This document shows positions 28,478 to 64,000 of a stretch of 64,000 bases of DNA, one piece after another. The stretch's first letter is position 1; every line of letters begins with the position of its first letter. The notes beneath the pieces are model-generated. The model was not told the origin of the DNA, made no database searches, and was given only the letters and a program-made list of their open reading frames with translations. A program made the translations under genes and the position numbers. Where the stretch lies: positions 372,001 through 436,000 of the forward strand of contig QPGO01000026.1 of assembly GCA_008632985.1 (NCBI GenBank). Reading direction: 5' to 3'. This stretch comes from Psammoneis japonica (Eukaryota).

Positions 28478-30194
28478 ATGCATCTCCACAATACACCATC
28501 CCTATCGGCACCCTGGCGCTTGACAGCACGGTTTGCACTGTTGACAATTTCAACGCTACTGCTTTTTCAGAAGTCGTCCGCCGCATTCGAATTCGTTTGT
28601 CCGATAAATGGTCAAGAGGACTCATCCTCGGAACTCCAGGCAAAAGACGAAAATGGCCCGGATTTTTCAGGTGTCTCTGGCCTGGCCTTCTCTTCCATCC
28701 AAACAGGACCTTCAGGTCAGCCTGTCATGTACGCTAACATTGATAGAGGAAACGGTAAAAGGTTGGGTATTTTTGATTCGGGTTCCGGAGAACGGTTGCT
28801 AACGCTCCAAATTCCAAGCCTTCCTTCTGCCTTTGATTGGGAGTCTCTGGCCATTGGATCGTGCGGCATTCATTGGGAGGACGAATCGTGTATCTACATT
28901 GGTGATATCGGCGATGGCCATGCAAACCAAAACGGCGGGGCTGAATCGGGAAGACAGGGAAACCCTTATCGAATCTACAAGATAAGAGAACCAGTTCTAC
29001 ACAAGTTCGATGATAATGATGTCATTCCAGCGAATGATACGTATGAATTGGAATATGATTACCACCACCCATCATCTCCCACCGAATTCGCTGACTGCGA
29101 AGCCATGTTTTTGGACCATCAGGGTTGGGGAGAAGGAGAGAGTAAAGGCGATCTTTACTTAGTTACCAAATGGGGTGCCGCCTACAAGAAGTACTATACG
29201 AGGTTGTTTCAAATTCCCGCATCTGCCTGGGATTTGTCAGAGGTTCCCTATTCACCTGCATCTGTGGGGAATTGTCCCAATGGGGGCTACTTATATGGCA
29301 GAACGTTTACAATGGCAGACATGACATTGGACGGCACTCTGATCGCTTTTGGTGGCTCAGCTAGATGCACAGTTGTATTTCCGCGATGTCCCGGTGTCAG
29401 TGTCGCCGAAGCCCTGACGGGTGACGCCGAGGGATGCGTAAAATGGCAGCATATCCCTGGTCGAACGAAAACCTTTGCATGGAGCTGGATGGAACCGAAA
29501 TCTGATCGTATCGGAACGTGAAGCGTGCGACCCTCGAGGACCGCCCTTAGCCTGGACCACAATGGATTACGATTCCCCAAATGCAACGATCATAGGGTGC
29601 CCGGATAAAGAGGCAAATGTGCAACCTGTAAGAACCACGGAAGGGTGTCCAACTGTCGTTCCACCGACAGAAGCCCCGCTTCCATTCTCTGAAGTGTTTG
29701 GTGAACTGAAGTGCCAGTACTCAGCATGCCTCGAGGAGTACAAGACAAAGTTTGACTATGCGCCTGAAGGGTTTGCAGAATTAATCCTCTCCAGATCCGA
29801 GGAAAATGTAATGGCCATCAAGAATGTGACGGACCGTGGAGACATCATTGTGTCTGCGGAAATGATGAGAGATTCGCTAAAGTTTTTTCAGGTATATCGT
29901 GCAATAGCTCTCGACGAGGGACGGCTAAATGCTCAAACGTTTGCTGACTGTGCAGGTACATTCGGAGGCAAATGCTCGCTTGACTTTCTTCGAGGCTTGA
30001 TTGAAGCGGTGGCAAATGAGGATGAGCTCACGGATGATGTCTACCTCGTGGAAGCGGAAAAGTATTTGGAGCAAGCTAAGGATTTCCTGCGCGAGAAGAG
30101 TTGGAGGCTCGCCACCTCTAGGGCCTTGTGGGGCATTAAACTTATCCTCAGAGGACTTGATGATGATGTCGTCGGCGCTCCTCACTTGTGCTAA
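28478..30194 (+). pseudogene. Secreted beta-propeller-like protein, paralog 1 (frameshifted)
   Basis: Nearly identical to 60188-61906, but two single-base deletions (~29485, ~29495) split it into ORFs 28478-29521 and 29475-30194. Could be a sequencing error. Confidence 0.8.
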
Positions 30195-31262
30195 TAATGT
30201 CTAGAAAAGGCGGCGATGTTTACGTGCTTCACTGTTGATTTGAGAGGCCGTCAGCGACTTCAATTTGCCGGGCAGATTCATGACAGCGGTGTGCCGTGTC
30301 ATGGCCCACGCAAGTTTGAATGCCCTCTATATAATACACCAAATAGTGTCCATGATTATTTAAAAGCTTTATGTGAAAATTGGTTTGATATGGATACCTA
30401 GCAAAATTGAGGACGGATAACTAACTAGAGTAGAGGGTGCTGCAATCCAAGCAAAGAGTAGGCATCCCAACTCACCGCGGAGCCTTGATGCCGTTCCAGG
30501 CTCAGATTCATCTTGAGACAAGGATCACGCATGGCCACTTTCATCGTTCCAATATATTATAGTACTCAAGATACGTCGTGAGAAACGTAAAGAAAGATCC
30601 CAATGAAATCAAATGCCTTGTTTCGTCCTTCAAATGAAGCTTGTTGGGAAAATGTGGAGCACTAGCTTGCTCATTGATAAACATGAACGAATCACACTCA
30701 AGTCAAATAGATCCGCATAAAATGAATCGGTCCACTTGTGTGCTTCTTCCTTGAGCCTTATGTATGGTGCGTATTGGTGCGTGATGTATGGTGCGTGTTT
30801 ACTTGAAGAAAGGAGTGGTGGCATGAGCCTCTTGTCCGACGAATCAGATCAAGCAACGTCAAAGTCCTTAATCATTCCCCAAGACAGGAGTCCAAACAAT
30901 AATTCCCAAAATCACTATGTGCTCGGAGGTATTGCACAAGCCCGTTACAGTACAGTAGTCAAAACAGCGCTTCTGTCACACAGCATCCGACCCATCGAGA
31001 ATACGACGAAGGACAACCACGGATTGCGATGACTCTCGGCTGAGAGCGTTGTGATGATTCGACTATTGGTCGAATATGAGAGGTGTCACCAACAAAAGGG
31101 TCGGTGACAGCAGATGGCATTGTTGTGCTCTTGTTGTTGCTTCACCAGAGAGTTGGGAAGATCGCTTCCAAAGTGAGGGTGGGAAACTGCACGCGCAAGC
31201 ATGCATGAGCACATACACGCGAATTGTGCATGAATTTGCTCTGTGTTGACGCGGATGGTTCA

Positions 31263-32174
31263 GCCCCTCCCTTATCGTCGCACAAAAACAAAAACAAAAA
31301 CGTTTTTTGTTTTCGTGACACGCGCGACGGCCTTATCGCCGAACAAAAACAAAAACACCCCTTCCATACATTTCTACGCCAAACCACGTATGTACGGATC
31401 CACGCGCTGACAATACCGGCTCCAGACGACCGCAACAAACAGAAGGGGCAAGACACGCAATGGCGTGTTCGAATCCATTTTATGACGGCAATTGTCGATC
31501 AATCATGACACAAGGCAATACAGTCGATACTATTGATTGAATGTCATCTATAGCATAAAAGATAAGGTGAAATATGGTAGCTTATGTGCAGAATACTAGT
31601 ACAACAGATCGGTTGTCAGAAAAGCACTGTTCTTGTGTCGTGTCATCACAAATGCGAATCATAAGGCGACTAGAGTGATGGCTAAGGCAAAAGTAGAACC
31701 TTATATGGCTAATAAAAATATGGCGGATTGAATAGTCACGTTCTTTCCTCCCTTCCACGTATCTTATGTGCAGAATACAGCGGATCGTTTCATCATGCTT
31801 GTGTTGTGTGGTCACAAATACAAGCCATAAGGCATCTATAGTAAAGGCTAAGGCCACAGTAGAACCATATATGACTAATGTTAATATGGAGAATTTAATG
31901 GAAAAGCTTTTTCCTCCTAATTCTACCACAAGGGGGCGCATCGCGTCGATGTGTCGATGTATCAGCCATGGTCGTCGCAGGTAGTGGATTTGTACGTGGC
32001 GAGACACGTAGCTGCGTTTTTGTGAGCATTTTTGTTTCCACAAAAACGTGGGGTCGTTTTTGTTCACGAGTACTCGTGAACAAAAACGAAAGTCTTAGTC
32101 GAGCGAGTCAATATGCAGTCGAATGGGTCAAATGCGTTTTTGTTTTTGTTTTTGTGCGACGACAAGGGAGGGGC
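31263..32174. mobile_element. Young 912-bp non-autonomous TIR element (PIF/Harbinger-like), 3-bp TSD TCA
   Basis: TIR GCCCCTCCCTT.TCGTCGCACAAAAACAAAAACAAAAACG at both ends, with tca on both sides. Empty site ggttcaggacgg at ~62969-62980. Rich in TA and CG. Confidence 0.93.
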
Positions 32175-34326
32175 TCAGGACGGTTGGGCTGGGGGGAAAC
32201 AAGCTCATGTTTGACAACATGGCCAATTCATCCGGCTCCAAGCATCAACAATGTCTTCACCACAATTGTTCACAAATGGGGAGGGAAAGGCACCTAAAAT
32301 GGCAGAGTCGCAAGAGCATCTTGATTGAACACAAATCAATCCACTGATCAGAAGCAAGTCTCAACGCAACCCACGGCAATGGCGCCAAATGCATCAGCAT
32401 GATGTTGCCACTGTTGCAATGAGGACAGCCCCCCACAAACCCACAACTGCCATCATCTCACAGTCTTGATGGTTGGCTGGGTCTTAAAGTCCTTGTCCCT
32501 GGCAGATGATGGACCACCATGACAAAGAATGGCGGCTTTTTGGGGATGCACAAGAACGTCTCAACATGCACACCACCCAGGAAGGAAAAGGAGGCACTCT
32601 TTTTAACCCTGTTCTCATCAATCGCTTTCTGAGTAACTTTTTGGGGAACCTCTAGAGGCTTGCATTTGAAGTGAGTGTGATGTTGACACCGGCAGCCCAA
32701 GACCGATTCCAGCTCTTGCTGGTGGACAAAGACAATGACTTGTTTTTGTGCCAGGTCATTTCTGCTGTGGTGGTCTGATGCATCATTGTCTTGACCTGCT
32801 TTCTCTTTAAGGTCCATTGTGTCATTTTGCTCCATTGTCTCATCATCATGTGCAGATGGTGGGAAATCAATTTCTTGTGCAGGGAGAAGGTTGCTGTTGC
32901 CCACTGCTTTAGAGCCAAACAAAACTCTTTGAGATGAGTTGGCTCAGCCAGAGTGTCCATTGCTGGCCCACAGCTGGGTGTTCTCCCTCAGCATTTGCAG
33001 CAGCAGCAGGTTCAAGAAGATGTGCAACATTCAAGGAACTTGGGTCATTGACAGTTCTGTCTGCCACCCTGTTGGAGATGACAGGGTCTTGACCCTTTGT
33101 GCAGCAGACAACGTCCTTTGCAGAACAATTTTCTGCTTGAATTTTGAGCATGGTTGCCTTCATCCCCACCCAGTGCACTCACCATGTTCATCATCAATTT
33201 CACCACTGTGCTCAGGGGCTGGCAAATGATCTTCAAGATTGATGAGCAGTTCCATCAAATCATCATTGTGGACCTTAAAAAGGTGAGTGTGAGGAGATGC
33301 TTTGCACAGATCAACTGTGTGAGTGTCTCCTTGGCAGCACTCTCTGCAGTGTGTTGCATGTGACACAGTCAGCCCAACACTCTTGGCAGCAAAGTCAGCC
33401 ATCATGGTCACTTGACTCTTCTCCCTGTCACCCACTGGTGTGCCAGTGTGACACAAATGGATGGCAGCAGCAACAAGAAGGAACTTTGCTTGACCCGTGC
33501 CTTTGGAATTTGTCATCCAAAGTGACAAGCTGCGTGAAGAATGACTCCCTCGTGACAGTGTGCTGTGGCATTTTGTTCCTCTTGTGACAAAACCTGGACA
33601 GAAGAACAACACAAAATGCACAAAAGACTTGCCTCCAGCACTGGGTGCTGGCTTGAGGAGTGGCTGGAAATTCATGTGTTTCCAATCTCTTGTTTTGAGG
33701 GAAAGCCGGTGGTGCCAAAAAAAAAGATCTCATCCAAAACCTTTGACTCTTCCCCGTTTTGTTTTTAAGAAGCCTTTTTTCAGAGCAACGAGTTTGCCAG
33801 AGCAAAGTTTCTGCTTCTGGGCATTCTGGAGCAAGGCTGGTGCAGCAACAGCAGCGATGTGCCTTTCCTTGAGGGTGCTGTGCTTGGCTTGCAAAACAGC
33901 CCAGATGAGTGCTCCTTGTGCTGCTTTTGAAACATGCCCCATGCACCTGTCAATGAAACAAACACCAAATGAGCAATGTGGACCTGTCCAAGACAAATGG
34001 GTCAAGAGCACAAAGTGCATGATGGTGGGAAGGCTTTGGTCAGAACCTTCATCTTGAATGACAGAACCTCATCTTGCTCATCAAGAAACCAAAGATCTCC
34101 CATGATGAAAGAAGGAAGGGTGTTGTTTGCCTTCACTTGGACAGTGGCCAGGTTGGCAGGAGGTGCAGTTGTCTCCAAAGGCTTGTCCTCATGCCTTGCA
34201 AAGGAAGTCAACTTCTTCCTCTGTCACCTCCATTGTGACCACAACCACCTGCATGACTGCTTCCATCATCCTGCTGGCAAGTTTGTTCCGTGATGACAAT
34301 GATGCAAGCGACGCGTTCCAGGTCTA

Positions 34327-34682
34327 GGTGGGACCTCGTACTACTGAACTGTGACATCGATAGTTTTTTGAATCACGTCGTATGTCGCGCACGTAGATTT
34401 CTACGTGATTTTTTTGATATTTTGTGTCATTTTACGGTACACTTATTGAGCGATCCGTCCAACAACTTTTGACATTTTTTGTTACAGCGCGATTCTATAA
34501 TGTCTTAAGAATCGCGTAGGGCAGGTGCATTTGCAAAAACGTCGAGTGGTAAGAGGCATAATTGTACCACAAACTTGGCCGTTTATTTGATGTTGAAGAT
34601 AAATATATCCATTAATTAAATTCTCGTACTGCGGAGCTCGCACGTAGAATTCTACGGGCCCAATGTCACACGGAGTCCCACC
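34327..34682. mobile_element. MITE (GGTGGGAC TIR, TA TSD), largely unmutated copy
   Basis: TA|GGTGGGAC...GTCCCACC|TA. Retains TA and CG inside a depleted block. Confidence 0.9.
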
Positions 34683-34999
34683 TAGGGCTGGAACGCGTCG
34701 CCAACAACAACACAGACTGTTGTGCATGTGCACAAATGCGAGGTTGCAAAAATTGCTGACTGCACCAGCAGAAGTCCCGCACAAATGCAAGAAAGAGAGC
34801 ATGCACCTGCACAATGGTGAAAATTTCAATCTTTGCAAGAACAGCTCAATGCAGCAAAAACCTGATGTGAACCTTCTTCTCAGACACACCAGATGTGCTG
34901 TGCCTGATTCAAACAGTGCTCAACACTCAGCTCTGCCAGCTGCATGACAACTCACAAACAAAGTGTCGCACAACAATGTAGACTGACAGAGCAGCAGCT

Positions 35000-41222: not shown

Positions 41223-42088
41223 TCACCTGCTGGAGGGTTGTTCTGAACATCCAGAATGGGTTGGATGGCAGCCGACATGGCAGCAAAAAAAGTGGTGGTG
41301 CTGGCGTCTGACGTCATTTGGATGGGCACGGCGTTGCTTGGGGGCTCTGGTGGCTTCTGCAAGAATTTTGAACCAAGTCAGGTCTCTGCAGCACAGAGGA
41401 AGTGTGTGGCTTTGTTGCAGTTCATGCAGCAGAGAGTAAAACAGCAAAGCAGACAACAAAGCAGTGATCAGATTTGCGAGTTTCCAAACTGTCAGCACAA
41501 AAACCATGCTGCTCGACACCAAAAATCAAAGAAAGAAAACACAGGAAGTGACTCGTCTTTGCACTGGAACCAACATGGATGAACATGGTGTAAAAACTTG
41601 TCAGGAACGAGAAGTTCTTGAGTGCATAAAAGAAGAATAAGAAGAGAAGTGAGGCTCCATTCTCGTTTTGAACCTTTTTGGAGCTCCAATGGTGTCCGCC
41701 CGTTGCGTCACTTGATCTTGGGGGGCGACTTTGGAAGTGAGATCGTCGAAGGCGGTCTGATCGCCAGTGCGTTTTGGGGTTTTCCCAGTACATTTTGTAC
41801 GCGCAAGAAAACACGTAGGATCTGTCCAGAGGTCCCAAATACCCAATCGCACTGATTGACAGACTGTTTTAGTACAAATTCTACGTAACTTTCTTCGACA
41901 GTCTCACTTCCGAAGACGTCCCCCAATCTGTGATTGGTCTTCAGACGTTGATGGCGGTCTTTTGCCGATCTTTGTACATGGATATAGACATTGTCACCCG
42001 CGTCTAACTGCGGGCTGAAGGTTGAGATCGTTGTCGTTTGATTGTGTTGATGTTGTTGTTCTTGTGGGTATTTCAAGTTGTCGTTCAT
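41223..42088 (-). pseudogene. Probable host membrane-protein gene disrupted by a MITE
   Basis: ORF from ATG 42088 is interrupted by the 207-bp MITE and followed by hydrophobic segments (LLFLFFFYALKNF; FLCFLSLIFGV; LITALLSALLFY). It decays towards the Copia relic. Confidence 0.45.
41719..41925. mobile_element. 207-bp MITE, TIR TGGGGG.., 4-bp TSD ATCT
   Basis: Reverse-complement copy of 19346-19552, with atct on both sides. Confidence 0.92.
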
Positions 42089-42445
42089 GACTTCGCCTTT
42101 TTTGACTGTGAGTAGGCCCTCTACTCTCTAGGGCCTAGAGTAGCTAGCTCTCTACTCTAACTACAAGAGAGGGCCCTCGTAAACGCGGGAGATCGGGTTT
42201 CGAGTTCCCGGTTCGCATTCGACACCGAACATTTATTGCAAATCAGTCGTACTACAGAAGTTAGCAAAAAAAAGGAAGGAAAACAACAATAAGGAAAACA
42301 AAAAAGTGAAAGCTTGCGAGCACTATACTATGCATTGAACCTTATTTCTCTTTTCGAATCAAAAGTTACTGCAATCAGTTCCACCATCACAAAGAACAAG
42401 AGACCTTGAGGATTACATTGAATTAGTGTCTCGGAAGCCCTAACC

Positions 42446-44176
42446 ATGCTTCTCCGCAATATATCATCTCTATCATCACCATGGCGCTCGACAGCACGGT
42501 TTGCACTGTTAACAGCTTCAATGCTACTGCTTTTTCAGGAGTTGTCTGCCGCATTCGAATTCGTTTGTCCGATAAATGGTCCAGAGGACTCGTCCACGGA
42601 ACTCCAGGCGAAAGACGAAAATGGCCCGGATTTTTCGGCTATCTCCGGATTGGCCTTCTCTTCCATCCAAACAGGACCTTCAGGTCAGCCTGTCATGTAT
42701 GCCAACATTGATAGAAGAAATGGCAAAAGGTTGGGTGTTTTCGATTCGGGTTCCGGAGAACGGTTGTTAACGCTGCGCATTCCAAGCCTTCCTTCAGTCT
42801 TTGCTTGGGAGTCTCTTGCCATTGGATCGTGCGGTATTCATGGGGAGGCCGCATCGTGTATCTACATTGGTGATATCGGCGACGGCTATGCAAACCTAAG
42901 CGGCGGGGCAGTATCGGGAAGACAGGGAAACCCGTATCGAATCTACAAGATAAGAGAACCAGATATAAGAAAGTTCAATGACAATGATGCCATTCCAGCG
43001 AAAGATGCGTATGCATTGGAATATGATTACCATCACCCATCATCTCCCACCACATTTGCTGATTGTCAAGCCATGTTTTTGGACCATCAGGGTTGGGGGG
43101 AAGGAGAGAGTAAAGGCGATCTTTACTTAGTTACCAAATGGGGCGAAGATTACAAAGAATACAACACGAGGTTGTTTCAAATTCCCGCATCTGCCTGGGA
43201 TTTGTCAGATGTTCCTTATTCACCTGCTTCTGTTGGGGATTGTCCCAATGAGGGTCACTTATATGGCAAATCGTTTACAATGGCAGATATGACATTGGAC
43301 GGCACTCTGATCGCTTTTGGTGGTGCAGCTAGATGCACAGTTGTGTTTCCGCGATGTCCCGGCGTAAGTGTCGCTGAAGCCCTGACGGGTGATGCCAAGG
43401 GATGCGTAAGATGGCAGCACATCCCGGGCCGAACGGAAACCTTCGCATGGAGCTCGGATGGATCCCGAAATCTGATCATATCGGAACGCGAATCCTGCGA
43501 CCCACGAGGCCCGCCCTTAGCCTGGACCACCATGGATTACGATTCTCCAGAAGCAACGATCATAAGGTGCCCGAACAAAGAGGCAAATGTGTGGTCTGTA
43601 AGAACAACGCTAGGGTGTCCCACTCCCACTTTCTCACCCATTTCTAAATTCCCGCCTCCATTCTCTTATGTGTTTGCCGACCTGAAGTGCCAGTACTCCG
43701 CATGCCTCGAGGAGTACAAGACAAAGTTTGACTTTGCGCCTGAAGGGTTTGGAGAAGTAATGCTTTCCAGATCTGAGGAACAAGCAGAGGCCATCAAGAA
43801 TGTGACGGACCTTGGAGACATAATCCAGTCTGCGGCAATGATGAGAGCTTCGCTCAAGTATTTTCAGCATTATCGTGCAGTAGCTCTTAACAAGGGACGG
43901 CTAAATGCACAAACGTTTGCTGACTGCGCAGGTAGATTCGGGGGGAAATGCTCGGTTGACTTTCTTAAAAATGTGATTGAAGCGGTGTCAAATGAGTATG
44001 AGCTCTCGTATGAGGGGAAGCTTGTGAAAGCAGAAAACTATTTGGAGCGAGCTAAGGCTTTCCTGCGCGAGAAGAATTGGTGGCTCGCCTCCTCTAGGGC
44101 CTCGTGGGGCATTCGCCTTATCCTCGAAAGCCTTGATAATGATCTCGTCGGCGCTCCACAATTGTGCGAAGAATAA
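42446..44176 (+). CDS. Secreted beta-propeller-like protein, paralog 2 (diverged)
   Basis: 576-aa ORF with signal peptide. Motifs SGLAFS, WESLAIG, IYIGDIGD, DCQAMFLD, LYLVTK and TMADMTLDG, plus a helical C-terminal domain. Confidence 0.88.
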   Translation: MLLRNISSLSSPWRSTARFALLTASMLLLFQELSAAFEFVCPINGPEDSSTELQAKDENGPDFSAISGLAFSSIQTGPSGQPVMYANIDRRNGKRLGVFDSGSGERLLTLRIPSLPSVFAWESLAIGSCGIHGEAASCIYIGDIGDGYANLSGGAVSGRQGNPYRIYKIREPDIRKFNDNDAIPAKDAYALEYDYHHPSSPTTFADCQAMFLDHQGWGEGESKGDLYLVTKWGEDYKEYNTRLFQIPASAWDLSDVPYSPASVGDCPNEGHLYGKSFTMADMTLDGTLIAFGGAARCTVVFPRCPGVSVAEALTGDAKGCVRWQHIPGRTETFAWSSDGSRNLIISERESCDPRGPPLAWTTMDYDSPEATIIRCPNKEANVWSVRTTLGCPTPTFSPISKFPPPFSYVFADLKCQYSACLEEYKTKFDFAPEGFGEVMLSRSEEQAEAIKNVTDLGDIIQSAAMMRASLKYFQHYRAVALNKGRLNAQTFADCAGRFGGKCSVDFLKNVIEAVSNEYELSYEGKLVKAENYLERAKAFLREKNWWLASSRASWGIRLILESLDNDLVGAPQLCEE

Positions 44177-44594
44177 GTAGAGAAGACGGACATGTTTCCG
44201 TCCTTCAGTGTTGACTAGAGGCAGGCAGCGATTTCAATTTGTCGGGCGGATTCATGACAGCGGTGTGCGGTGTCATGGCCCAGTTGGAATGCTCTAACAA
44301 TGTCCATAATTGCTGTATAGACTACATGTGCAAATAATTGGTTTGCTGTTTCTACTTATAAGAGGGTGTTGCAATCCAAGCATGAGCAGGCATCCCAACT
44401 CACCGCAGAGCCTTGATGCTGTTCCAGAGGCTCAGATTTTTCTTCCTCTTATTGACCAGACAGAGCTGTTGGGAGTGCGCTCAGATTGATCTTGATGCAT
44501 GGCAAATTCCACAGTGCTCAAGATGCGTCGTGAAAATTGCAAAGAAAGATCTCAATGAATTTTGTGTTTTGTTGACACAGATTTACGTTTTTAT

Positions 44595-51910: not shown

Positions 51911-52144
<234 letters not shown>

Positions 52145-53015
52145 NGAAGTGTGAAAGCACCACATCCAGGAAATCTTGGATTTAAAAACAGAGCCTTCCT
52201 TTGACCTGGACTTGACAGCTTGACAGGGATCTTGGCTTGACAACTGACTTGGGTCTTCTTGACAGCGGGCGACACTTTGGGTTGCTCACAAATGGAGTTG
52301 CAAGTTAGAGCTGCTGCAAGCAAGCTCACAAAATGTGGACAATCCCCCTGGACCCAGATGACCCAATCAGATGCCTGAGAACAAGCAAACAAATGTGGGA
52401 AATGCACCTCCAAACTCCAGCAAAGGCTGTCCAATCATGGCTGCTTCCTCTCACAGCTGTCCTTTTGTGGGTCTGGCAGAGCTGCAGAAGACCAGCAGCA
52501 TGCAGTGAACATGATGGAACAGCGTCAGCACTTTAGACTCAGTGCACCTGAACAAAATGCCAACGTTCATGTGTGGGTGAAGACAGCACGCAAATGATTG
52601 GTTGGGTGGCTGCAACAAGCAAAACAACATGCATGGCACTGATTGTCACTCATGTGACAAAAACAATGGAGCATGGCAACAATGTGTGTTCTCCAAAACA
52701 ACAATGGGGTGGCATGCAAAGGAGCAAAACAAAGGAAGAACTTTGCAAAATGGGATCAGCAGCACACTGTGTTGTGCTTGGGGGCACATTGTGCACTCTG
52801 CTGTGGTTGATGGTTCTTGGACATGTGCAAGAGACAGCACTGCTTCTCTGTGCATCATGAAAAGCACCCTGCAAGTTGCCTGGCAGCTTTCTTTTGGTGA
52901 CAAAGTTGCGCTCATTGTGTGCAAATGCACGCAGTGTGGGGACATTTTCATTTGGTCATTGTGACAATCAATGATTGCCACACACCAAAAATTGTGATCT
53001 CTGGCAGGCACAAGA

Positions 53016-53523
53016 TGACAAAATTGTCTGGCACTGAAATCTGTGCAGAAAATTGTGCTTGATGAATTTTGTCTCACCTGGAGCTGGAGCCAGCCAAACT
53101 GGCAATGTGGCACACAAGCTGACAAACAGCATTTGAAGCTTCAAGCAAGCAGCTCTTGTGCCAATGATTTGTTTGCTCTTGGCACTGTTCTTGCTGTTGT
53201 CCAACCTCTTGTTGAGGTGTGAACTCTCTTTCCCATCACAGGAGCAGTGCCATTGCGCTAGCCATTCATGACAAAATTGTCTGGCACTGAAATCTGTGCA
53301 GAAAATTGTGCTTGATGAATTTTGTCTCACCTGGAGCTGGAGCCAGCCAAACTGGCAATGTGGCACACAAGCTGACAAACAGCATTTGAAGCTTCAAGCA
53401 AGCAGCTCTTGTGCCAATGATTCATTTGCTCTTGGCACTGTTCTTGCTGTTGTCCAACCTCTTGTTGAGGTGTGAACTCTCTTTCCTGTCACAGGAGCAG
53501 TGCCATTGCGCTGGCCATTCATG
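53016..53523. repeat. Tandem duplication, 253-bp period x2
   Basis: tgacaaaattgtctggcactgaaatc...gccattcatg occurs twice, near-identical. Confidence 0.92.
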
Positions 53524-54157
53524 CCCAGTTGCTTGCACATTGATGCTGGCCTCCCTGGAGAGGTTGTTGCTGCAAATGATCCATTTTTCATTTTGAAGCA
53601 AACAAAGCAAAGCTGATGTTGCTCATGCCATCTTTGCAGCGTTGATTGTCACAACTGGGGGGGTGCACCGTGCTTGAAGAATGAGTGCAAACAAAAGCAG
53701 AATGAAGTTCGAAAAGTGAAAATTATGAGAATTGTTTCCACGCAATCATTTTGGGTTTCTCCGAATGAGCTCTCAACAGCCCAAACCTTTTGCACTGCTC
53801 CCGTGGACAAAAGGCCTTTTGGAGAATGAGATCGTGACAACAGATTGTCCGGGTGCGATTGACATTGACACACAAGATGTCAACATCATCGTACGATCGC
53901 ATTTGCAATTCTCGACATCCGATCACTTCTGTGTGATTGATCTGCCCTTTGTGCGAACCCACGATTGATGTGCGATTGGAGCACAAATTCATTTAACACA
54001 CACACACACACATCATGCACATGACAACGCATGTTGCACTCGCCTCCCTAATTGCACATTAGAGTCAGTTGTTAAACGGCATTGTCTGACGAATGTTGAC
54101 AGCGTCAACAACGTCACCGCGTTTGATCTGTGCTGTGCCATCAGTGTGCACCGTTGC

Positions 54158-56081
54158 TCATTTTTGCGAGTCTTTCTTGAGCAGTGTCTTTTCTCCTGCT
54201 CTGCACGTGCAAGGAGTGCATTGAGCATTCTCTCGAGCGTCATTTTTGTTTGTGATTTCTTGTTTTTGCTGCTGGATTAATTTCCAGTCTGCAACATGTT
54301 GGACGTTAAACATCATGTCTCTGTTGAAGACCAATTGTCCTGGTGCAGCTTGCGCAGTGGCATGATGCGCAGAACGCACTGCAAATGCTGCTGCTGACAG
54401 CATTCCAGCAAAAGGATCCTCAGCATGCAGAGGTGCATGTTGCAAATCAAATGCATGGAGCATGTTTCCCAGTGCTTGATGCATGCGTTCAATGGTTGCA
54501 TTTGCTTGTGGATTTTGTGCAGTTGTGGGCTTGACTTCAATGCCATGATCATCTTGCACCATCTCTTTAAATTGGTGTCCAATGAACTCACTTCCACGGT
54601 CACATGCAATTGACGATGGCCAAGGACATCCACTCAACCACGTCCATTCTAACAGTCCAGCTGCAGTCATGGATTCCTTGTTTGGGATTTCCACAACTTC
54701 AAACCATCTGGTTGCTGGATCAATCATTGTCAAACATTTCAGGACCAGGGGTTCTTTCTTTCCCTTGCGGCGCATTTTGTGTGGTTCAATGAGATCCACA
54801 CAAAGTCATTCCCAGGGCACTGATTCTGCACACTTGGGAGGCAAATGTCCATGTTTCTTGTGTTTCTTTTTGAATTTCTGGCATGTCTCACATCTCGACA
54901 CACATTTTTGTGTGTCTTCACGCAAGGTGGACCACCATGGGTGTTGTGAGATTGTTTCTTCTGTTCGATTTGTGCCAGGGTGATGAAGGCACGCATGACA
55001 CCAATCCATCACTGCTTTTTGCAATGTCTTTGCAATGATGATTTTGTCCTTGTGACATGTGAGCAACCGGTCTCGCTCGCCTCCATGAAAAGTCTTTGCA
55101 TCAAATGTCTTGTTTGACAATTTGGAGAGGATTTGTTTGTCCTGTTTTTGTTCACAATCAAGAACTTTGCAATTCAACGGAAAGACATTGTCGTGGGATT
55201 TTGGCAGGACCTTTTCAGCTGGCTCTTCTGTGCTGAGGTTTTCCACAGGTTCCATTTTTTTCATGGTGAGTCGGCTGATTGCATCTGCAACAATGTTCAC
55301 CTTTCCCTCAAGATGTGTCATTTTAGGACTGTGTTGTTCCATCATTAGACGCCAATGCGTGACTCTGTCTGTTGTGAAATTTTTGTGTGTGAGATTTTTG
55401 TGATCTGTGTGTGTGTTCATCTGTTGGCCAAACAGCACATTTTGGAACTCTTTTGACATCTCCACTGTGGACAACAGCTCTTTTTCCGTTGCAGCATGGT
55501 GCGTCTGCACTCCATTCGCTTGCGGCTGTAGAAGGCAATTGGTCGGTTGTTCTGTGCAATGACTGCCCCTCAAGGTTTGCAGCATGACAATCTGAGTCAA
55601 GGATCTGATTGACCCTGTCATTAAGACTGATCACAGCATGAGATTCCTCAATGTGATTGGCAATCAACTTAAAAACATCGGCATCGAAGAGTGCACCAAC
55701 ATTCTTCACAGGTGCAGTTGCGTCTTCCCATTTGATCTCTTCATTCGAGAAGTCCAATGTTGTCCCAAGACTTGACATTGAGTCACGTCCCATGATCACA
55801 TCATGACAACTCGAAGAAGAAGGGGTGTTGTCAACACACACCGTTGTTTCAATCATCTCATGTTTGTCAAATTCGGGTGAGGAGAATTGGATTTTACATT
55901 GACTGTCAGTCGTAAAGAGCCCTCCTTTGGTTTCCCAGAGTTTGGTGGTGGATGCTTTGGTTCTGAGTTTCCACGTGAATTTGCGCAAAATTGTGGTTGA
56001 CGATGTGCCGCTGACAAGGAGAACATGCAGAGGCTCATTTTTTGCTTTGCCTGAGGAGGCATTCACACAAGCAATGACCAC
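54158..56081 (-). pseudogene. Gypsy pol relic (protease, RNase H, integrase; RT deleted)
   Basis: VLLVSGTS and HDVIMGRD (PR). TEKELLS, TDHKNL and ADAISRL (RNase H). HACLHHPG..CETCQK, DRGSEF and NPQANATIERMH (IN). Confidence 0.9.
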
Positions 56082-56162
56082 TGGACTAGCATGAATTGCT
56101 TTGGCCCTTTTTCCGGGCTTCCTGACATCCAGTGAGGTGCAAGACTCCTCTTGCGGTGCAAG

Positions 56163-57317
56163 TCATTCCTCAGAATCGCTGCGCATCATTTTTTCAAACT
56201 GACAATTCTCCTTGTCAAGGGTGTCAGAGTCACAATCTTTGCTCTTGCGCTTCTTGTCATTGTTCGAAGAACTTGCTTTGAGCATTTTTTGAACTGCTTG
56301 GACTGCCACAGCATTCAACTCTTCTTTGCAAGTGGCATTGTCGTCATCACGACGAGACCACGTGCGATTGCCATTTGAACGGTGCCATTTTGGATCAGGT
56401 TCATAGTTTCCATGGCATTCTTTTGCAAGTCTTTTGATCAACCAGCACTTGTCCATGTCATGAGTGGATTTCTTGCACAAAATGCACCACTTCTTGGACT
56501 GAGATTTTTTGGCACCATGTTGGTGACCATTTTTGGAACCACGTTGGGAGCCATTCTTGGCTTTTGATGCAGCACTGCCACTGCCATCAGCCTTGGCATG
56601 AACACTGTCAAATGTGTCCTCTGCGACCTCTGGGTGCTCCAAAAACTCAACCAACTTGTCGCAGGCATGTTTCAAAATTTCGAAACCCTGGACGGTCGAC
56701 TGATGCTGCCACTTTCGAGGTGCAAGATTGAAGAGGACATCCTTGAGCTCGTCCTCCTCGATCTTCTGATCCTCTCCAAAGGGAGGACAGAACTTGAGGT
56801 CTTTGTTGACTTCCTGGACCCAAGCAGCAATTTTGCATGCTTTCATTGACTCTGGCTTCTTGAGATCGCAATGCAAGTAGCGTTTCTGAACCGAAAGTGC
56901 GTTCTTGGGAAACACACGCCTCGTGAGATGCTGCAGGCATTTGTTGAAGCTTCCTTCCATGGACTCGTCTTCAATGTTCACTGCCGCATTCTCAAAAGCA
57001 CGCAGAGCGTCTCCTTGTAGCAACATGCGCATGAGACGGAATTTGTCGGCTTGCTTCTTGACATTCTGGCCCGCTGGAAGTTGATCGCAGCTTTTGTGAA
57101 ATTTGATGAACTTGGGAACACCCTGTTTCTTGTGGCACTCAACATTGATGGTGTGGGCATGGCTGTCCTTCTTCTTGGGATGAAAACACTGCTCCATCTT
57201 GAGGCACTGACTCAGTTTGAGAGTCTTTGGCTTGCAATTTGATTCCAATGGTTGAGGAACGATTTTCTCCTGCCTTGATGAAGTCTTGGCATTGGTTGCA
57301 TGAGGTGAAAGCTTCAT
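56163..57317 (-). pseudogene. Gypsy gag relic
   Basis: Open frame with LLQGDALRAF, VFPKNALSVQKRYL and zinc knuckle WCILCKKSTHDMDKC. Confidence 0.8.
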
Positions 57318-60187
57318 TTTTGACTTGTTGCCTTCTGTGGTGTGTGTGCACAATGCACTGTGCTCAAAGAACGAGTGCAAACGAAAGTAGAGTGAAGTTC
57401 GAAAAGTGAAAATTATGAGAATCATTTCTGCGCAATCATTTTGGGTTTCTCCGAATGGGTTCTCAACAGCCTAAACCTTTTGCACTGCTCCCACAGACAA
57501 AAGGCCTTTTGGAGAATGAGATTGTGACAACAGATTGTCCGGATGCGATTGATGTTGACACATGAGATGTCAACATCATTGCATGATCGCATTTGCGATT
57601 CTCGACATCCGATCACTTCTGTGTGATCGATCTGCCCTTTGTACGAACCCACGATTGACGTGCGATTGGAACACAAATTCACTCAATGTGCAGACACACA
57701 CACGTGACACTTGCATGACAACGCATGTTGCAGGGGGCACAGTCACTTGGTGCACAATCTCCTCAATGCAGTCAAGACCATGATGGAGCACAAGTGCCTG
57801 CTGCACAACCCAGCTGAGATCAAGTTTGACAATGGCTGCACACAGAACACAGCCTGACTCTGGCAACATTGCCTGCATTGAAGAAATGTGCAGCAAACTC
57901 ATGAAGAATGGTGAGTGGCCTGCACTGGCTGCTGAACTCTCAGAGGGCAATCTCTCACCTCTCTGACCTGTCCAAGAGTGGGGGTCCCAAGCTGAAAAGT
58001 GCCACAACTGTGGCCTTGAGGGGTGCATGAAATGCACTTGCTGCTGTCCCAAGTGCAGGGTGCAGGGCTGCTTGCCTGAAGAACAACCCTGCTGCAGCTT
58101 GCAGATGTGCAGCCCACTGAGGATCCACCTCAACAGCAATCCAAATGCAAGCCTCTCTCACCCCAGTGCACTGACTTTGCCAGAGAGACCATTGCTTGGC
58201 TGGGATGATGGCTTGAGCTGGAAGTGATGTGGGAGGAAGTGCAAGGAATGTGGAGATCTGAAAAATCTGGGCTCTGCCAACATTGTTCCATGACAATCGC
58301 TGGCTCAGCTTTGAGCAATCGGACAAGGAAGTGCTGTCTGGTGACCTGTCTTTTGCAAAGAACCTCAGTTGTGGCATTCCCAGCATGGGTTGTTTGTTCT
58401 GACATCAAAGACAAACACGTGCTTGTCATCTGCTGACATGAAAGCCATGGAGCTTGTGCACAGAACTCTGCATGAAAAAACCACAAAAAAACCTGCCTGG
58501 AGCTGGAGCACATCAAACCATGTTCTTGTTTTCTGTGGACATCAGAAAATGCAGCTGCTCAAACAAATGCCTGATGCTTTTAAGTGGGCGACCCAACAAC
58601 TGCAAGCTGAAACAAACCAAGCCCAAAGTCATGTGGACACATGCATGAATTTGTGCTGAGTTGTCAAAAATTGCAAAATGTTTCACTCCCCCACTGAAAG
58701 TTCTCACCCAGAGCTGAAAGTTGGCTGCAGTTGATGTGACACACATGGTTGGCTTCCTTCGCAGGGCACCAAGGACCTGGCGTGTTTCTTCATCAGATGT
58801 GCCCCATGCTCACGTGCCAAGTCACCACCACAGAAAGGCCATTGGCAACAACCATCTGTTTTGAAGTTAACAGCCTGCTGGTGCAGTTGGAAGGGCATTT
58901 GCCATGGCCCTTTGTGTGCTTTCCAGCTGCGCAAGCAACATTGCACTCAAATCCCTGCGGGGGGTTGTGAGAGAGGCCAAAGCAGCCAGCAGCATCTGCA
59001 GCTTGCATGGTTGAGGCAATGTCAAACAATGCAGTCACACACCAAGATGACGTGCAGAGGCTTTTCACAAAGAGAGTTTTTGCTGTGCAAGGTTTTGAAA
59101 ACAACTCCTCCTGTGCTGCCAACATGGGGACAAGGCACAGAGGGGGGATTTTGAAAGCACGACTTTCTTGTTTTCAGCTGCAAATGCACTGAGGGATTCC
59201 TTTCTTGAAAAAAGTTCACACAGTTGTGAAGCTGGGCTCCAAGTGACATTCAAAATCAAACCAACTGCGAGCTTGCGGATCGGGAACTCGTGTCTCGGGC
59301 TGCAGCTTGACTTTGAGCACAAACCCCCAGGCGTGACTGCTGCACAGCATCGCAACAATGTCACACACGGGAAGTTTCTAAAGTTGACAAATGATCAAAT
59401 GGAGCATCAACCAGGTTGAGCAAGCTCCATCATGGTGGGTCCAGTGTGCCATGGAAGCAGCTTGAGCATGGCATCATCGCCAAAATGTGAGCTGTTTTGT
59501 GTTTGAGTTGCGAGATGAAATCCGTTCTGCCATCAAAGAATTGAGGGTCAAGAACTGCACAAAACAGTTTGTGATTAACAATCAAAAGGAAGGCTTCTTA
59601 AACACATGAATGATCTTGAAACTTGGACCATTGAGTGTTCGAATCATTTGTCAACAAGCGGTTCATTTGCCGGTGTTTGATGATCTCCTACCTAATGAGA
59701 ACTCATCGGTCATAGTTCTGACCATAAGTAAGCAGAGGTTGGATCGCCACAGGGGTGCAACCCGTTAAATGTACACAACAATTATACGGAAACTGTTTCA
59801 GAAAAGCTTAAATGTTCGGAATCATTTATCAATCAGGTCATGGCATTTGAATCAGGTCATGGCATTTGATTGGCCCCAACATGGAGAACTAATAACTAAT
59901 CGGTCACAATTTTCAAAACGCGGGCGAGGTCCCGGTTCGCATTCGATAGCTACTGTACCAGTAATGTCGTAAAAGTGGGTACGCGAGAGGGCCGGAGAGG
60001 ACACAAAAAAAGGAGAACAACAACAAGAAGAAGGAAAGAAAAAACGTGAAAGCTTGCGCGCACTACTGTACTCTGTGCATTGAACATTATTACTCGGTTT
60101 GAATTAAAAAATTACCGCAATCACTTCGAACATAGCGAGCAATAAGCCTGTGGATTATATTGAATTGCTCTCTCGGAAGTCCTAACC

Positions 60188-61906
60188 ATGCATCTCCACA
60201 ATACACCACTCCTATCGCCACCATGGCGCTTGACGGCACGGTTTACACTGTTGACAGCTTCAACGTTACTGCTTTTTCAGGAGGTGTCCGCTGCATTCGA
60301 ATTTGTTTGTCCGGTAAATGGTCTAGAGGACTCATCCTCGGAACTCCAGGCAAAAGACGAAAATGGCCCGGATTTTTCAGGTGTCTCTGGACTGGCCTTC
60401 TCTTCCATCCAAACAGGACCTTCAGGTCAGCCTGTCATGTACGCCAACATTGATAGAGGAAACGGTAAAAGGTTGGGTATTTTTGATTCGGGTTCCGGAG
60501 AACGGTTGCTAACGCTCCAAATTCCAAGCCTTCCTTCTGCCTTTGATTGGGAGTCTCTTGCCATTGGATCGTGCGGCATTCATTGGGAGGCCGAATCGTG
60601 TATCTACATTGGTGATATCGGCGATGGCTATGCAAACCAAAACGGCGGGGCTGAATCGGGAAGACAGGGAAACCCTTATCGAATCTACAAGATAAGAGAA
60701 CCAGTTCTACACAAGTTCAATGATAATGATGTCATTCCAGCGAATGATACGTATGCATTGGAATATGATTACCGCCACCCATCATCTCCCACCGAATTCG
60801 CTGACTGCGAAGCCATGTTTTTGGACCATCAGGGTTGGGGGGAAGGAGAGAGTAAAGGCGACATTTACTTAGTTACCAAATGGGGTGCCGCCTACAAGAA
60901 GTACTATACGAGGTTGTTTCAAATTCCCGCATCTGCCTGGGATTTGTCAGAGGTTCCCTATTCACCTGCATCTGTGGGGAATTGTCCCAATGGGGGCTAC
61001 TTATATGGCAGAACGTTTACAATGGCAGACATGACATTGGACGGCACTCTGATCGCTTTTGGTGGCTCAGCTAGATGCACAGTGGTATTTCCGCGATGTC
61101 CCGGTGTCAGTGTCGCCGAAGCCCTGACGGGTGACGCCGAGGGATGCGTAAAATGGCAGCATATCCCTGGTCGAACGAAAACCTTTGCATGGAGTCTGGA
61201 TGGAACCCGAAATCTGATCGTATCGGAACGTGAAGCGTGCGACCCTCGAGGCCCGCCCTTAGCCTGGACCACCATGGATTTCGATTCCCCAAATGCAACG
61301 ATCATAGGGTGCCCGGATAAAGAGGCAAATGTGCAACCTGCAAGAACCACGGAAGGGTGTCCAACTGTCGTTCCACCGACAGAAGCCCCGCTTCCATTCT
61401 CTGAAGTGTTTGCCGAACTGAAGTGTCAGTACTCAGCATGCCTCGAGGAGTACAAGACAAAGTTTGACTATGCGCCTGAAGGGTTTGCAGAATTAATCCT
61501 CTCCAGATCCGAGGAAAATGTAATGGCCATCAAGAATGTGACGGACCGTGGAGACATCATTGTGTCTGCGGAAATGATGAGAGATTCGCTAAAGTTTTTT
61601 CAGGTATATCGTGCAATAGCTCTCGACGAGGGACGGCTAAATGCTCAAACGTTTGCTGACTGTGCAGGTACATTCGGAGGCAAATGCTCGCTTGACTTTC
61701 TTCGAGGCTTGATTGAAGCGGTGGCAAATGAGGATGAGCTCACGGATGATGTGTACCTCGTGGAAGCGGAAAAGTATTTGGAGCAAGCTAAGGATTTCCT
61801 GCGCGAGAAGAGTTGGAGGCTCGCCACCTCTAGGGCCTTGTGGGGCATTAAACTTATCCTCAGAGGACTTGATGATGATGTCGTCGGCGCTCCTCACTTG
61901 TGCTAA
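60188..61906 (+). CDS. Secreted beta-propeller-like protein, paralog 3 (intact)
   Basis: 572-aa ORF with signal peptide. Motifs DWESLAIG, IYIGDIGD, DCEAMFLD and IYLVTK. Confidence 0.9.
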   Translation: MHLHNTPLLSPPWRLTARFTLLTASTLLLFQEVSAAFEFVCPVNGLEDSSSELQAKDENGPDFSGVSGLAFSSIQTGPSGQPVMYANIDRGNGKRLGIFDSGSGERLLTLQIPSLPSAFDWESLAIGSCGIHWEAESCIYIGDIGDGYANQNGGAESGRQGNPYRIYKIREPVLHKFNDNDVIPANDTYALEYDYRHPSSPTEFADCEAMFLDHQGWGEGESKGDIYLVTKWGAAYKKYYTRLFQIPASAWDLSEVPYSPASVGNCPNGGYLYGRTFTMADMTLDGTLIAFGGSARCTVVFPRCPGVSVAEALTGDAEGCVKWQHIPGRTKTFAWSLDGTRNLIVSEREACDPRGPPLAWTTMDFDSPNATIIGCPDKEANVQPARTTEGCPTVVPPTEAPLPFSEVFAELKCQYSACLEEYKTKFDYAPEGFAELILSRSEENVMAIKNVTDRGDIIVSAEMMRDSLKFFQVYRAIALDEGRLNAQTFADCAGTFGGKCSLDFLRGLIEAVANEDELTDDVYLVEAEKYLEQAKDFLREKSWRLATSRALWGIKLILRGLDDDVVGAPHLC

Positions 61907-64000
61907 TAATGTCTAGAAAAGGCGGCGATGTTTACGTGCTTCACTGTTGATTTGAGAGGCCGTCAGCGACTTCAATTTGCCGGGCAGATTCATGACAGCG
62001 GTGTGCGGTGTCATGGCCCACGCAAGTTTGAATGCCCTCTATATAATACACCAAATAGTGTCCATGATTATTTAAAAGCTTTATGTGAAAATTGGTTTGA
62101 TATGGATACCTAGCAAAATTGAGGACGGATAACTAACTAGAGTAGAGGGTGCTGCAATCCAAGCAAAGAGTAGGCATCCCAACTCACCGCGGAGCCTTGA
62201 TGCCGTTCCAGGCTCAGATTCATCTTGAGACAAGGATCACGCATGGCCACTTTCATCGTTCCAATATATTATAGTACTCAAGATACGTCGTGAGAAACGT
62301 AAAGAAAGATCCCAATGAAATCAAATGCCTTGTTTCGTCCTTCAAATGAAGCTTGTTGGGAAAATGTGGAGCACTAGCTTGCTCATTGATAAACATGAAC
62401 GAATCACACTCAAGTCAAATAGATCCGCATAAAATGAATCGGTCCACTTGTGTGCTTCTTCCTTGAGCCTTATGTATGGTGCGTATTGGTGCGTGATGTA
62501 TGGTGCGTGTTTACTTGAAGAAAGGAGTGGTGGCATGAGCCTCTTGTCCGACGAATCAGATCAAGCAACGTCAAAGTCCTTAATCATTCCCCAAGACAGG
62601 AGTCCAAACAATAATTCCCAAAATCACTATGTGCTCGGAGGTATTGCACAAGCCCGTTACAGTACAGTAGTCAAAACAGCGCTTCTGTCACACAGCATCC
62701 GACCCATCGAGAATACGACGAAGGACAACCACGGATTGCGATGACTCTCGGCTGAGAGCGTTGTGATGATTCGACTATTGGTCGAATATGAGAGGTGTCA
62801 CCAACAAAAGGGTCGGTGACAGCAGATGGCATTGTTGTGCTCTTGTTGTTGCTTCACCAGAGAGTTGGGAAGATCGCTTCCAAAGTGAGGGTGGGAAACT
62901 GCACGCGCAAGCATGCATGAGCACATACACGCGAATTGTGCATGAATTTGCTCTGTGTTGACGCGGATGGTTCAGGACGGTTGGGCTGGGGGGAAACAAG
63001 CTCATGTTTGACAACATGGCCAATTCATCCGGCTCCAAGCATCAACAATGTCTTCACCACAATTGTTCACAAATGGGGAGGGAAAGGCACCTAAAATGGC
63101 AGAGTCGCAAGAGCATCTTGATTGAACACAAATCAATCCACCGATCAGAAGCAAGTCTCAACGCAACCCACGGCAATGGCGCCAAATGCACCAGCATGAT
63201 GTTGCCACTGTTGCAATGAGGACAGCCCCCCACAAACCCACAACTGCCATCATCTCACAGTCTTGATGGTTGGCTGGGTCTTAAAGTCCTTGTTCCTGGC
63301 AGATGATGGACCACCATGACAAAGAATGGTGGCTTTTTGGGGATGCACAAGAACGTCTCAACATGCACACCACCCAGGAAGGAAAAGGAGGCACTCTTTT
63401 TAACCCTGTTCTCATCAATCGCTCTCTGAGTAACTTTTTGGGGAACCTCTAGAGGCTTGCATTTGAAGTGAGTGTGATGTTGACACCGGCAGCCCAAGAC
63501 CGATTCCAGCTCTTGCTGGTGGACAAAGACAATGACTTGTTTTTGTGCCAGGTCATTTCTGCTGTGGTGGTCTGATGCATCATTGTCTTGACCTGCTTTC
63601 TCTTTAAGGTCCATTGTGTCATTTTGCTCCATTGTCTCATCATCATGTGCAGATGGTGGGAAATCAATTTCTTGTGCAGGGAGAAGGTTGCTGTTGCCCA
63701 CTGCTTTAGAGCCAAACAAAACTCTTTGAGATGAGTTGGCTCAGCCAGAGTGTCCATTGCTGGCCCACAGCTGGGTGCTCTCCCTCAGCATTTGCAGCAG
63801 CAGCAGGTTCAAGAAGACATGCAACATTCAAGGAACTTGGGTCATTGACAGTTCTGTCTGCCACCCTGTTGGAGATGACAGGGTCTTGGCCCTTTGTGCA
63901 GCAGACAATGTCCTTTGCAGAACACTTTTCTGCTTGAATTTCGAGCATGGATGCCTTCATCCCCACCCAGTGCACTCACCATGTTCATCATCAATTTCAC

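Follow-up and report, generated by a model that had tools for sequence, protein, structure and literature searches.

The Locus and Its Element

The 64,000-nt stretch analyzed here ("the window") comprises positions 372,001 to 436,000 of contig QPGO01000026.1 in the genome assembly of the diatom Psammoneis japonica (GCA_008632985.1). On its minus strand it carries a 4069-bp retroelement bounded by two direct repeats (53664-54038 and 57354-57732), which are 88% identical over 379 aligned columns, with a core (53664-53963 and 57354-57653) at 90% identity. Both have the TG..CA ends of long terminal repeats (LTRs), beginning with TGCAC and ending with GTTGCA. The differences between these sister LTRs are the main subject of this report: it is very probable that, after insertion, both underwent context-specific transitions at TpA and CpG dinucleotides within a presumably silenced compartment of the genome, while islands of genes have been spared. 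The parts of the element, in window coordinates, are:

53659..53663, strand not applicable: left copy of the target-site duplication, GGGGG, within a run of 7 G, read directly
53664..54038, minus strand: LTR of 375 nt, the 3' LTR in element orientation, with TG..CA ends, 88% identical to 57354-57732
54039..54049, minus strand: purine-rich run AGGGAGGCGAG (minus-strand sequence) adjoining the 3' LTR, polypurine-tract-like to judge from its position only
54158..54805, minus strand: open reading frame (ORF) for an integrase core, 215 aa, without tyrosine (Tyr); PF00665 (rve), E 2e-7
54806..55630, minus strand: ORF for a partial RNase H and an integrase zinc-binding domain, 274 aa, without Tyr; PF17917, E 5e-8, and PF17921, E 1.4e-12
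55323..56162, minus strand: ORF of 279 aa between gag and RNase H, with 0 Pfam families, in the expected place of protease and reverse transcriptase (RT)
56163..57353, minus strand: gag-like ORF with a C-x2-C-x4-H-x4-C knuckle (CILCKKSTHDMDKC) spotted by eye; no Pfam match
57354..57732, minus strand: LTR of 379 nt, the 5' LTR in element orientation, from the repeat alignment with 53664-54038
57733..57737, strand not applicable: right copy of the target-site duplication, GGGGG, read directly

GGGGG stands directly before 53664 and directly after 57732, forming a 5-bp target-site duplication; that it matches on both sides argues for the two LTRs being sisters. Along the minus strand the domains follow the Ty3/gypsy order: gag-like (CCHC), then RNase H, integrase zinc domain, and integrase core. 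The PF00665 match scores 31.6 bits, just below the curated cut-off of 32.6, and the PF17917 match begins at profile position 39, corresponding to a partial RNase H; 20 homologues could be aligned to the RNase H-integrase zinc ORF, at 31-45% identity. The Pfam search found no RVT (reverse transcriptase) family in any element ORF, and the internal part of the element is only 3.3 kb long. The element is read as a deletion derivative, an RT-deleted, non-autonomous, multi-copy Ty3/gypsy-like retrotransposon. No tRNA primer-binding site was recognizable next to the 5' LTR in a reading by eye only. There is no second copy of it, or of its LTR, elsewhere within the window; a conserved 27-nt stretch of the LTR had 0 matches in a metagenome pattern scan, and Rfam gave 0 matches in the window.

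Short reads from one public run, which may be the assembly's own source, cover the flanks of the element at a depth of ~60-150, its interior at 1,500-9,200, and its LTRs at 20,000-24,000. Since interior and LTR depths are far above those of the flanks, the family has tens to hundreds of members in the genome. Short-read contigs whose depth is that of a single copy (~60) have 0 differences to the window at 53457-53699, 54723-54851, 57004-57153, and 57644-58095, the first and last of which span the two LTR/flank junctions; because both junctions are matched exactly, the sequence of the window does not appear to be an assembly artefact. Base modifications can lead to systematic miscalling of a transition-like kind in long reads, and CG and TA might in principle have been read in this way as TG or CA. 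Given these four error-free stretches, 419 aligned contigs at least 99% alike, and gene islands of normal composition in the same assembly, we regard a sequencing or assembly artefact of this kind as extremely unlikely.

Differences between the Sister LTRs

In the 379-column alignment of the two LTRs, 47 columns are mismatched. Forty-three of these are substitutions, 41 of them transitions and only 2 transversions. When the mismatches are classified by context, with gap-adjacent columns omitted, they are not evenly spread, but are enriched at pyrimidine-purine (YR) dinucleotides: transitions occupy 33 of 195 YR-context positions and 7 of 174 others (odds ratio 4.9, Fisher p = 7.5e-5). In the clean part of the alignment (53664-53996), the YR sites of interest are distributed as follows: CG in both copies, 11; CG opposite TG, 7; CG opposite CA, 3; TA in both, 1; TA opposite CA, 4; TA opposite TG, 1; and TG opposite CA, 6. 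Each copy keeps some TA and CG opposite CA or TG in the other: the left LTR (53664-54038) keeps TA at 2 of the differing sites and the right LTR (57354-57732) at 3, and each keeps CG at 5. For TA, an earlier note on this DNA had described this from a smaller set of examples. Both strands are affected, with TA/CA at 4 sites vs. TA/TG at 1, and CG/TG at 7 vs. CG/CA at 3 (binomial p = 0.12).

The six sequence pairs quoted in the earlier note are all present. Three are single changes, with the right LTR given first: aagTag/aagCag (57388/53698), ccTaaa/ccCaaa (57472/53782), and gtAcga/gtGcga (57643/53953). The others are compound: atCgTaCgatc/atTgCaTgatc at 53890-53894, ttcTGcg/ttcCAcg at 57429/53739, and ccGTGgac/ccACAgac at 53803-53805. 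For the last of these the note had proposed an ancestor, ccgtagac; the pair itself is there, but the ancestral state is not resolvable, CGCG and CGTA each taking three changes.

Because both LTRs are copied from one template, they should be identical at insertion, and their differences arose in the chromosome; the GGGGG on both sides agrees with the earlier note on this point. The argument would be weakened if the LTRs were not sisters, or if ectopic gene conversion had imported differences from other copies of the family. Donors do exist, as seen from the LTR read depth (20,000-24,000, vs. ~60 in the flanks), and the target-site duplication is part of a low-complexity G run. The 5-bp duplication nevertheless matches at both ends, and the differences are scattered along the LTRs rather than grouped in tracts. 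We think either event quite unlikely here; and changes imported from another copy would still be TA and CG conversions that had taken place in DNA elsewhere, so that the dating would be altered but not the process.

With independent loss in each LTR, a two-copy model gives a TpA loss of ~0.71 per copy and a CpG loss of ~0.31 per copy, so that the TpA arm of the process is some threefold faster than the CpG arm (-ln(1-p) of 1.25 vs. 0.37). Under the same model 4.3 TG/CA double sites are expected, with TA contributing 3.1 of them and CG 1.1; 6 are seen (P = 0.26), and on sequence grounds these sites can derive from either dinucleotide.

The effect on apparent age is considerable. Over all positions the LTR p-distance is 43/375 = 11.5% (Kimura two-parameter distance ~0.13); it falls to 7/174 = 4.0% when non-YR positions are taken by themselves, and to 2/375 = 0.5% when only transversions are counted. 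LTR ages from total divergence are therefore inflated about threefold or more, as had been suspected from the first inspection, and LTR dating in such genomes is better done from non-YR sites or transversions.

Direction of Change

A pairwise comparison of LTRs gives no polarity, and direction at the LTR sites is taken here from other loci and from composition. The most informative locus is a three-copy repeat with one copy of normal composition (34280-34760) and two that are TA-poor (13488-13970 and 1600-1900). The 27 TA of the normal copy are represented in copy 13488-13970 by 2 TA, 18 CA, and 7 TG; conversely, just 1 of the 47 TG/CA sites of the normal copy reads TA there. Copy 13488-13970 also has 16 of 23 CG converted (CG>TG 12, CG>CA 4). 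Across the two converted copies together, 39 of the 41 sites with TA in the normal copy appear as CA or TG. Five sites of the repeat have all three states, TA, CA, and TG, for which the simplest explanation is that an ancestral TA was converted independently on either strand.

Composition points the same way. In the background of the window, observed/expected (o/e) ratios are 0.05 for TA, 0.19 for CG, 1.83 for CA, and 1.85 for TG. A process that makes TA is ruled out, because it could not leave old non-genic DNA with so little TA and so much CA and TG. From these frequencies and the LTR site table, we estimate that the TA/CA and TA/TG mismatches between the LTRs would be losses in about nine in ten cases.

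The coding sequence of the element supplies a third comparison. When the RNase H-integrase ORF is aligned with its 20 homologues, none of 7 conserved Tyr columns is kept: five have become histidine (His) codons of the form CAY, one is cysteine (Cys; TGT), and one is leucine. Other conserved residues in the same alignment are retained (Q 6/6, H 5/5, W 4/4, D 3/3, N 3/3), and conserved isoleucine (Ile) is frequently ACA, ATG, or GTG. The four element ORFs contain 2 Tyr in 1168 residues.

Comparison of the window with the reads gave 76 variant places, of which 40 are listed, 38 of them in the interior and none of those listed inside the LTRs. At the 38 listed interior places, the window copy departs from the family majority by CG>TG at 11, CG>CA at 4, TA>TG at 3, and TA>CA at 1; there are also three double sites (6 places) at which the family has TG and the window CA, 6 non-YR transitions, and 3 transversions. 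The window copy keeps CG at 3 and TA at 1 of the listed interior places where the family majority is TG or CA.

These comparisons bear on whether methyl-CpG decay alone might account for the LTR differences, with the TA/CA and TA/TG mismatches representing C>T changes at non-CpG cytosines (CpA>TpA), and TA therefore gained, as happens in the repeat-induced point mutation (RIP) of fungi. In its favor, CG is involved at 10 of the 21 YR sites that differ within the clean part of the LTRs; the LTR pair itself gives no direction; and relatives of the element in other hosts, discussed below, show only CG depletion. It would, however, have to produce old sequence with a TA o/e of 0.05, the opposite of a TA-generating outcome. 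It would also have to explain the five three-state sites, the change of 25 of 27 TA sites vs. 1 of 47 TG/CA sites between the normal and converted repeat copies, the loss of all seven conserved Tyr with five His and one Cys in their place, and the four listed places where the window has TG or CA and the family majority TA, as against one for the reverse. For the genome as a whole such data already contradict it, and we consider it very unlikely.

Much of the TA loss seems, to judge from the codons affected, to predate the present insertion: the absence of those Tyr codons seems to extend to most of the family, which makes much of the conversion older than this copy, and the RT-less element evidently kept spreading despite it. 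The Tyr>His and Tyr>Cys changes are apparently common to the family majority, none of those codons being among the 40 listed variant places, and this older fraction could in principle have passed through RNA. Change before integration, whether the retro-transcript was edited from A to I by an ADAR-like enzyme, the cDNA deaminated by an APOBEC-like one, or errors made by reverse transcriptase, has this in its favor, as well as the preference of ADAR-type enzymes for a 5' U (stated in bioRxiv 10.64898/2026.01.13.699255). For the LTR differences it is nonetheless highly improbable. Changes made earlier than integration would be common to both LTRs, which have one template; instead, the LTRs differ mutually, and changes between them are found on both strands. 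The lost Tyr codons are mostly sense-strand T>C rather than A>G, by 5 to 1, the opposite of the A>G expected in the sense strand from ADAR-like editing. Conversion also extends to DNA outside retroelements: to the three-copy repeat, to a tandem repeat of 253 bp, and to the flanks present in single copy. Finally, the favored 3' neighbor of the edited A is a pyrimidine here, whereas ADAR prefers a 3' G. The conclusion of the earlier note, that a two-stranded process acting on DNA is to be preferred to ADAR-like RNA editing, therefore stands.

The 253-bp tandem duplication (53015-53520) lies just upstream of the left LTR. Its copies are 98% identical, and the 5 differences between them all belong to YR transitions, at one TA/TG site and two sites of the TG/CA double type; nothing else has changed. 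Among other repeat pairs in converted DNA, the same YR excess of transitions is seen. A duplicate that was already converted, 32172-33203 / 62969-64000, has no such excess (6 vs. 6 transitions), which fits an exhausted substrate.

A Preferred Target for TA Conversion

The polarized TA events are not indifferent to their neighbors. In RTAR contexts, 12 became CA and 0 TG; in YTAY contexts, 3 became CA and 6 TG, with 1 kept (Fisher p = 0.0015 for converted sites). Because RTAR goes only to CA, and YTAY mostly to TG, the base most readily converted is the T of 5'-RTA or, equivalently and in the same base pair, the A of TAY. Surviving trinucleotides, counted in background vs. island DNA, are in keeping with this: ATA 14 vs. 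562, GTA 32 vs. 574, CTA 72 vs. 426, and TTA 98 vs. 456. At the tetranucleotide level (converted vs. island), ATAT (0 vs. 77), GTAC (0 vs. 83), and ATAC (1 vs. 148) are nearly erased, while the best survivors include TTAA (21 vs. 53), CTAA (29 vs. 77), and CTAG. Four of the five Tyr-to-His codons have a purine directly 5'.

Converted and Spared Compartments

A scan of the window in 200-bp steps for the ratio (TA+CG)/all-YR shows a bimodal distribution, with ~36.8 kb (~58%) at 0.04-0.11 and ~27.2 kb (~42%) at 0.23-0.40. Normal DNA is mostly in blocks of 2.8-5 kb, including six large islands at 0.36-0.40 (approximately 1801-6200, 14801-19800, 21001-24400, 27801-32200, 41601-44400, and 59401-63000), whose borders are sharp at 200-bp resolution. 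Island o/e ratios are 0.59 for TA and 0.93 for CG. The two dinucleotides vary together, with r = 0.90 for TA vs. CG o/e across 1-kb bins; some bins have a TA o/e of 0.00 and a CG o/e of 0.01. The islands contain long, apparently intron-free ORFs, encoding Duc1, GST, PDZ, an endonuclease/phosphatase fold, and a PIF1-like helicase.

One island provides a control of the same age as the LTRs. It is present as a duplicate (28290-31263 / 60004-62975) with 19 transversions in 2968 positions (0.64%), vs. 2 in 375 (0.53%) for the LTRs, and its spectrum of substitutions is ordinary, with 27 transitions and 16 transversions. Between the copies, differences affect only 4 of the 120 sites with TA and 7 of the 152 with CG. 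An island of LTR-like transversion age has thus been spared, so that the process is locus-specific, and not uniform across the genome. Present-day copy number is not decisive, because single-copy flanks have been converted while duplicated gene islands have not.

This duplicate belongs to a larger duplication, about 26900-33300 / 58100-64000, of mosaic identity (100% down to ~80%). Only the island part was used as the same-age control, the mosaic identity barring a test of background vs. island. Besides the pair at 27203-33203 and 58961-64000, there is a third copy, at 42265-44444, with 84-86% identity; the duplication is unconverted despite being multi-copy. Each copy carries an ORF of 580 aa that matches no Pfam family; its named homologues come from diatoms. 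Copy A also has ~900 bp (31262-32175) that are absent from copy B, of unconverted composition and bounded by 41-bp inverted repeats (31262-31302 vs. 32175-32135, 97.6%); from its sequence this insert looks like a young terminal-inverted-repeat transposon. Elsewhere in unconverted or partly converted DNA are the PIF1-like helicase ORF (23875-24855, plus strand) and the endonuclease/exonuclease/phosphatase fold ORF (16627-17811, minus strand), which may belong to mobile elements, Helitron-like and like long interspersed nuclear elements (LINEs), respectively.

Relatives in Other Hosts

The named homologues of two island ORFs are all from diatoms, at 37-51% identity, in genera including Epithemia, Fistulifera, Nitzschia, Seminavis, Cylindrotheca, Attheya, Amphora, and Pseudo-nitzschia; a protein-atlas search gave only Duc1 clusters, with fungal taxa. 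A dinoflagellate origin had also been considered; a spliced-leader motif had 0 matches, and the idea was abandoned in view of the diatom homologues. Relatives of the retroelement were found in metagenomes, 79 in number, and all have a TA o/e of 0.58-1.12. Because 79 of 79 related elements keep TA, its loss is a property of the host rather than of the element clade. Several of these relatives have a CG o/e of 0.01-0.16, and since they are CG-poor with normal TA, CpG loss is possible without TpA loss. The loci in question (L007, L055, L062, L066, L010, and L039) have TA o/e ratios of 0.62-0.90.

A Possible Mechanism

The comparisons above show conversion that follows insertion, affects both strands, depends on context, and is restricted to certain loci. 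In our reading, each LTR changed independently in chromosomal DNA after insertion, TpA going to CpA or TpG, and CpG to TpG or CpA, with changes outside these dinucleotides rare. The process acts on either strand, is confined to a non-genic and presumably silenced compartment, and is near completion there. The TpA arm may consist of an enzyme acting on RTA at its T:A pair, by deamination of the adenine or by a modification that makes the thymine mispair; since the same base pair is affected, sequence does not separate the two. Targeting would probably follow methylated or silent chromatin. The CpG arm would most simply be deamination of 5-methylcytosine, spontaneous or assisted, in the same compartment, and the two arms are likely to be separate activities.

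More broadly, and as a tentative suggestion with perhaps not quite as much for it as against, this diatom may have a chromatin-targeted form of DNA editing by which, on either strand, 5'-RTA has its T:A pair replaced by C:G, and which, beside methyl-CpG decay, has removed nearly all TpA and most CpG from non-genic DNA, with gene blocks left intact. Taken with the chlorarachniophyte case described below, TpA editing would then be a recurrent, and perhaps ancient, genome defence of the stramenopile-alveolate-rhizarian (SAR) lineages.

Several points tell against the reading of the LTR differences as post-insertion TpA and CpG losses, or limit its reach. Polarity at the LTR sites themselves is indirect, drawn from other loci and from composition rather than from an outgroup LTR; and by arithmetic from the composition and the LTR site table, roughly 10% of TA/CA mismatches would be gains at compositional equilibrium. 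TG stands opposite CA at three interior sites of the element and at two sites of the 253-bp tandem repeat, despite the little TA and CG remaining there; in depleted DNA such sites call for two successive changes or for an intermediate that is not seen. Pyrimidine changes are in weak excess on the plus strand in the LTR pair (11 vs. 4 for TA/CA plus CG/TG, p = 0.12), and copy 13488-13970 of the three-copy repeat leans likewise (TA>CA 18 vs. TA>TG 7, CG>TG 12 vs. CG>CA 4), though these are small numbers. One of the two informative interior TA sites violates the RTA rule, with gTAg in the family converted to TG at 55195. If the short-read run was the source of the assembly, it is not independent support for it. 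A cause shared by the TA and CG arms, beyond a common compartment or age, would go further than the present demonstration. Finally, conversion is seen here through sequence comparison.

Comparison with Known Systems

CpG loss is the ordinary signature of methyl-cytosine decay, and is used to age methylated repeats. The window resembles such decay in having CG>TG and CG>CA changes on both strands, concentrated in non-genic DNA. Methyl-CpG decay leaves TpA untouched, however, and here the TpA arm is the faster.

RIP in fungi consists of C>T changes, mostly CpA>TpA, in duplicated DNA, and so creates TpA. The likeness to the window is in its general character: defence-like transitions in a fixed dinucleotide context ruin repeats, and sharp compositional blocks alternate with normal gene blocks. 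The differences are that TpA is destroyed here, not made (just 1 of the 47 TG/CA sites of the normal repeat copy is TA in the converted one), and that single-copy flanks are converted, and duplicated gene islands spared.

ADAR and APOBEC editing likewise produces clustered transitions in retroelements, and a T (U) 5' of the edited A would suit an ADAR-type enzyme. Such editing is strand-specific and would be common to both LTRs, and neither is the case here; DNA outside retroelements is converted as well.

The closest parallel is from the chlorarachniophyte Bigelowiella natans, the subject of the only publication found in a literature search for TpA loss in diatoms or elsewhere; in the parts seen of a diplonemid paper (PMC10161547), no dinucleotide bias is mentioned. 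According to the 2026 B. natans preprint, mutation-accumulation lines gained 231 new mutations in two regions of integrated viral DNA, and 230 of these were A>G or T>C, all at TpA. Mutation rates in the viral regions were ~1000x background, with de novo events, confined to some of the lines, at ~1e-7 to 1e-6 per site per generation (bioRxiv 10.64898/2026.01.13.699255). The same source counts 124 TpA-poor clusters in ~85 Mb of callable nuclear genome, with a Rho of 0.45 for a viral region, and its authors propose an ADAT2-like DNA adenine deaminase; the main text makes no mention of CpG or LTRs (bioRxiv 10.64898/2026.01.13.699255).

The B. natans process shares with ours a DNA-level change of TpA to TpG or CpA on either strand, at restricted loci, with the remaining genome mutating normally. 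Its clusters are TpA-poor and rich in CpA and TpG, and reverse-transcriptase and transposase domains are enriched in the TpA-poor genes. By this analogy, the TpA arm belongs in one class with the TpA hypermutation of B. natans. The differences are several. The host is a chlorarachniophyte there and a diatom here. The effect here is saturating, with ~58% of the window at a TA o/e of 0.05. TpA loss here is accompanied by CpG loss, the timing comes from sister LTRs, and there is an RTA trinucleotide preference, where the sections of the preprint consulted give no wider motif; conversely, the preprint records de novo events, while conversion is deduced here from sequence comparison. The diatom case thus extends to a new lineage, and shows in an extreme form, a process that has a single earlier description. 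To the B. natans case it adds post-integration timing from sister LTRs, a same-age unconverted island as control, and a sharper RTA/TAY motif.

If correct, the proposed mechanism supplies a defined trinucleotide signature that is searchable in any genome, and points to a natural enzyme editing A:T in double-stranded DNA; should this be a DNA adenine deaminase, it would be of interest for base editing. Converted elements will escape repeat and gene finders, their Tyr and Ile codons having been rewritten and their TAA and TAG stops lost.

Other Features of the Window

In the 4.2 kb from 53600 to 57800 all six frames look open, with 39 overlapping stop-to-stop ORFs that are 60 aa or longer. Because TAA and TAG stops have vanished along with TA, ORF length is no guide to coding in converted DNA. 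Upstream of the element, at 51914-52144, perfect short tandem repeats reach the window's single N (52144), which is probably an assembly gap in a repeat array.

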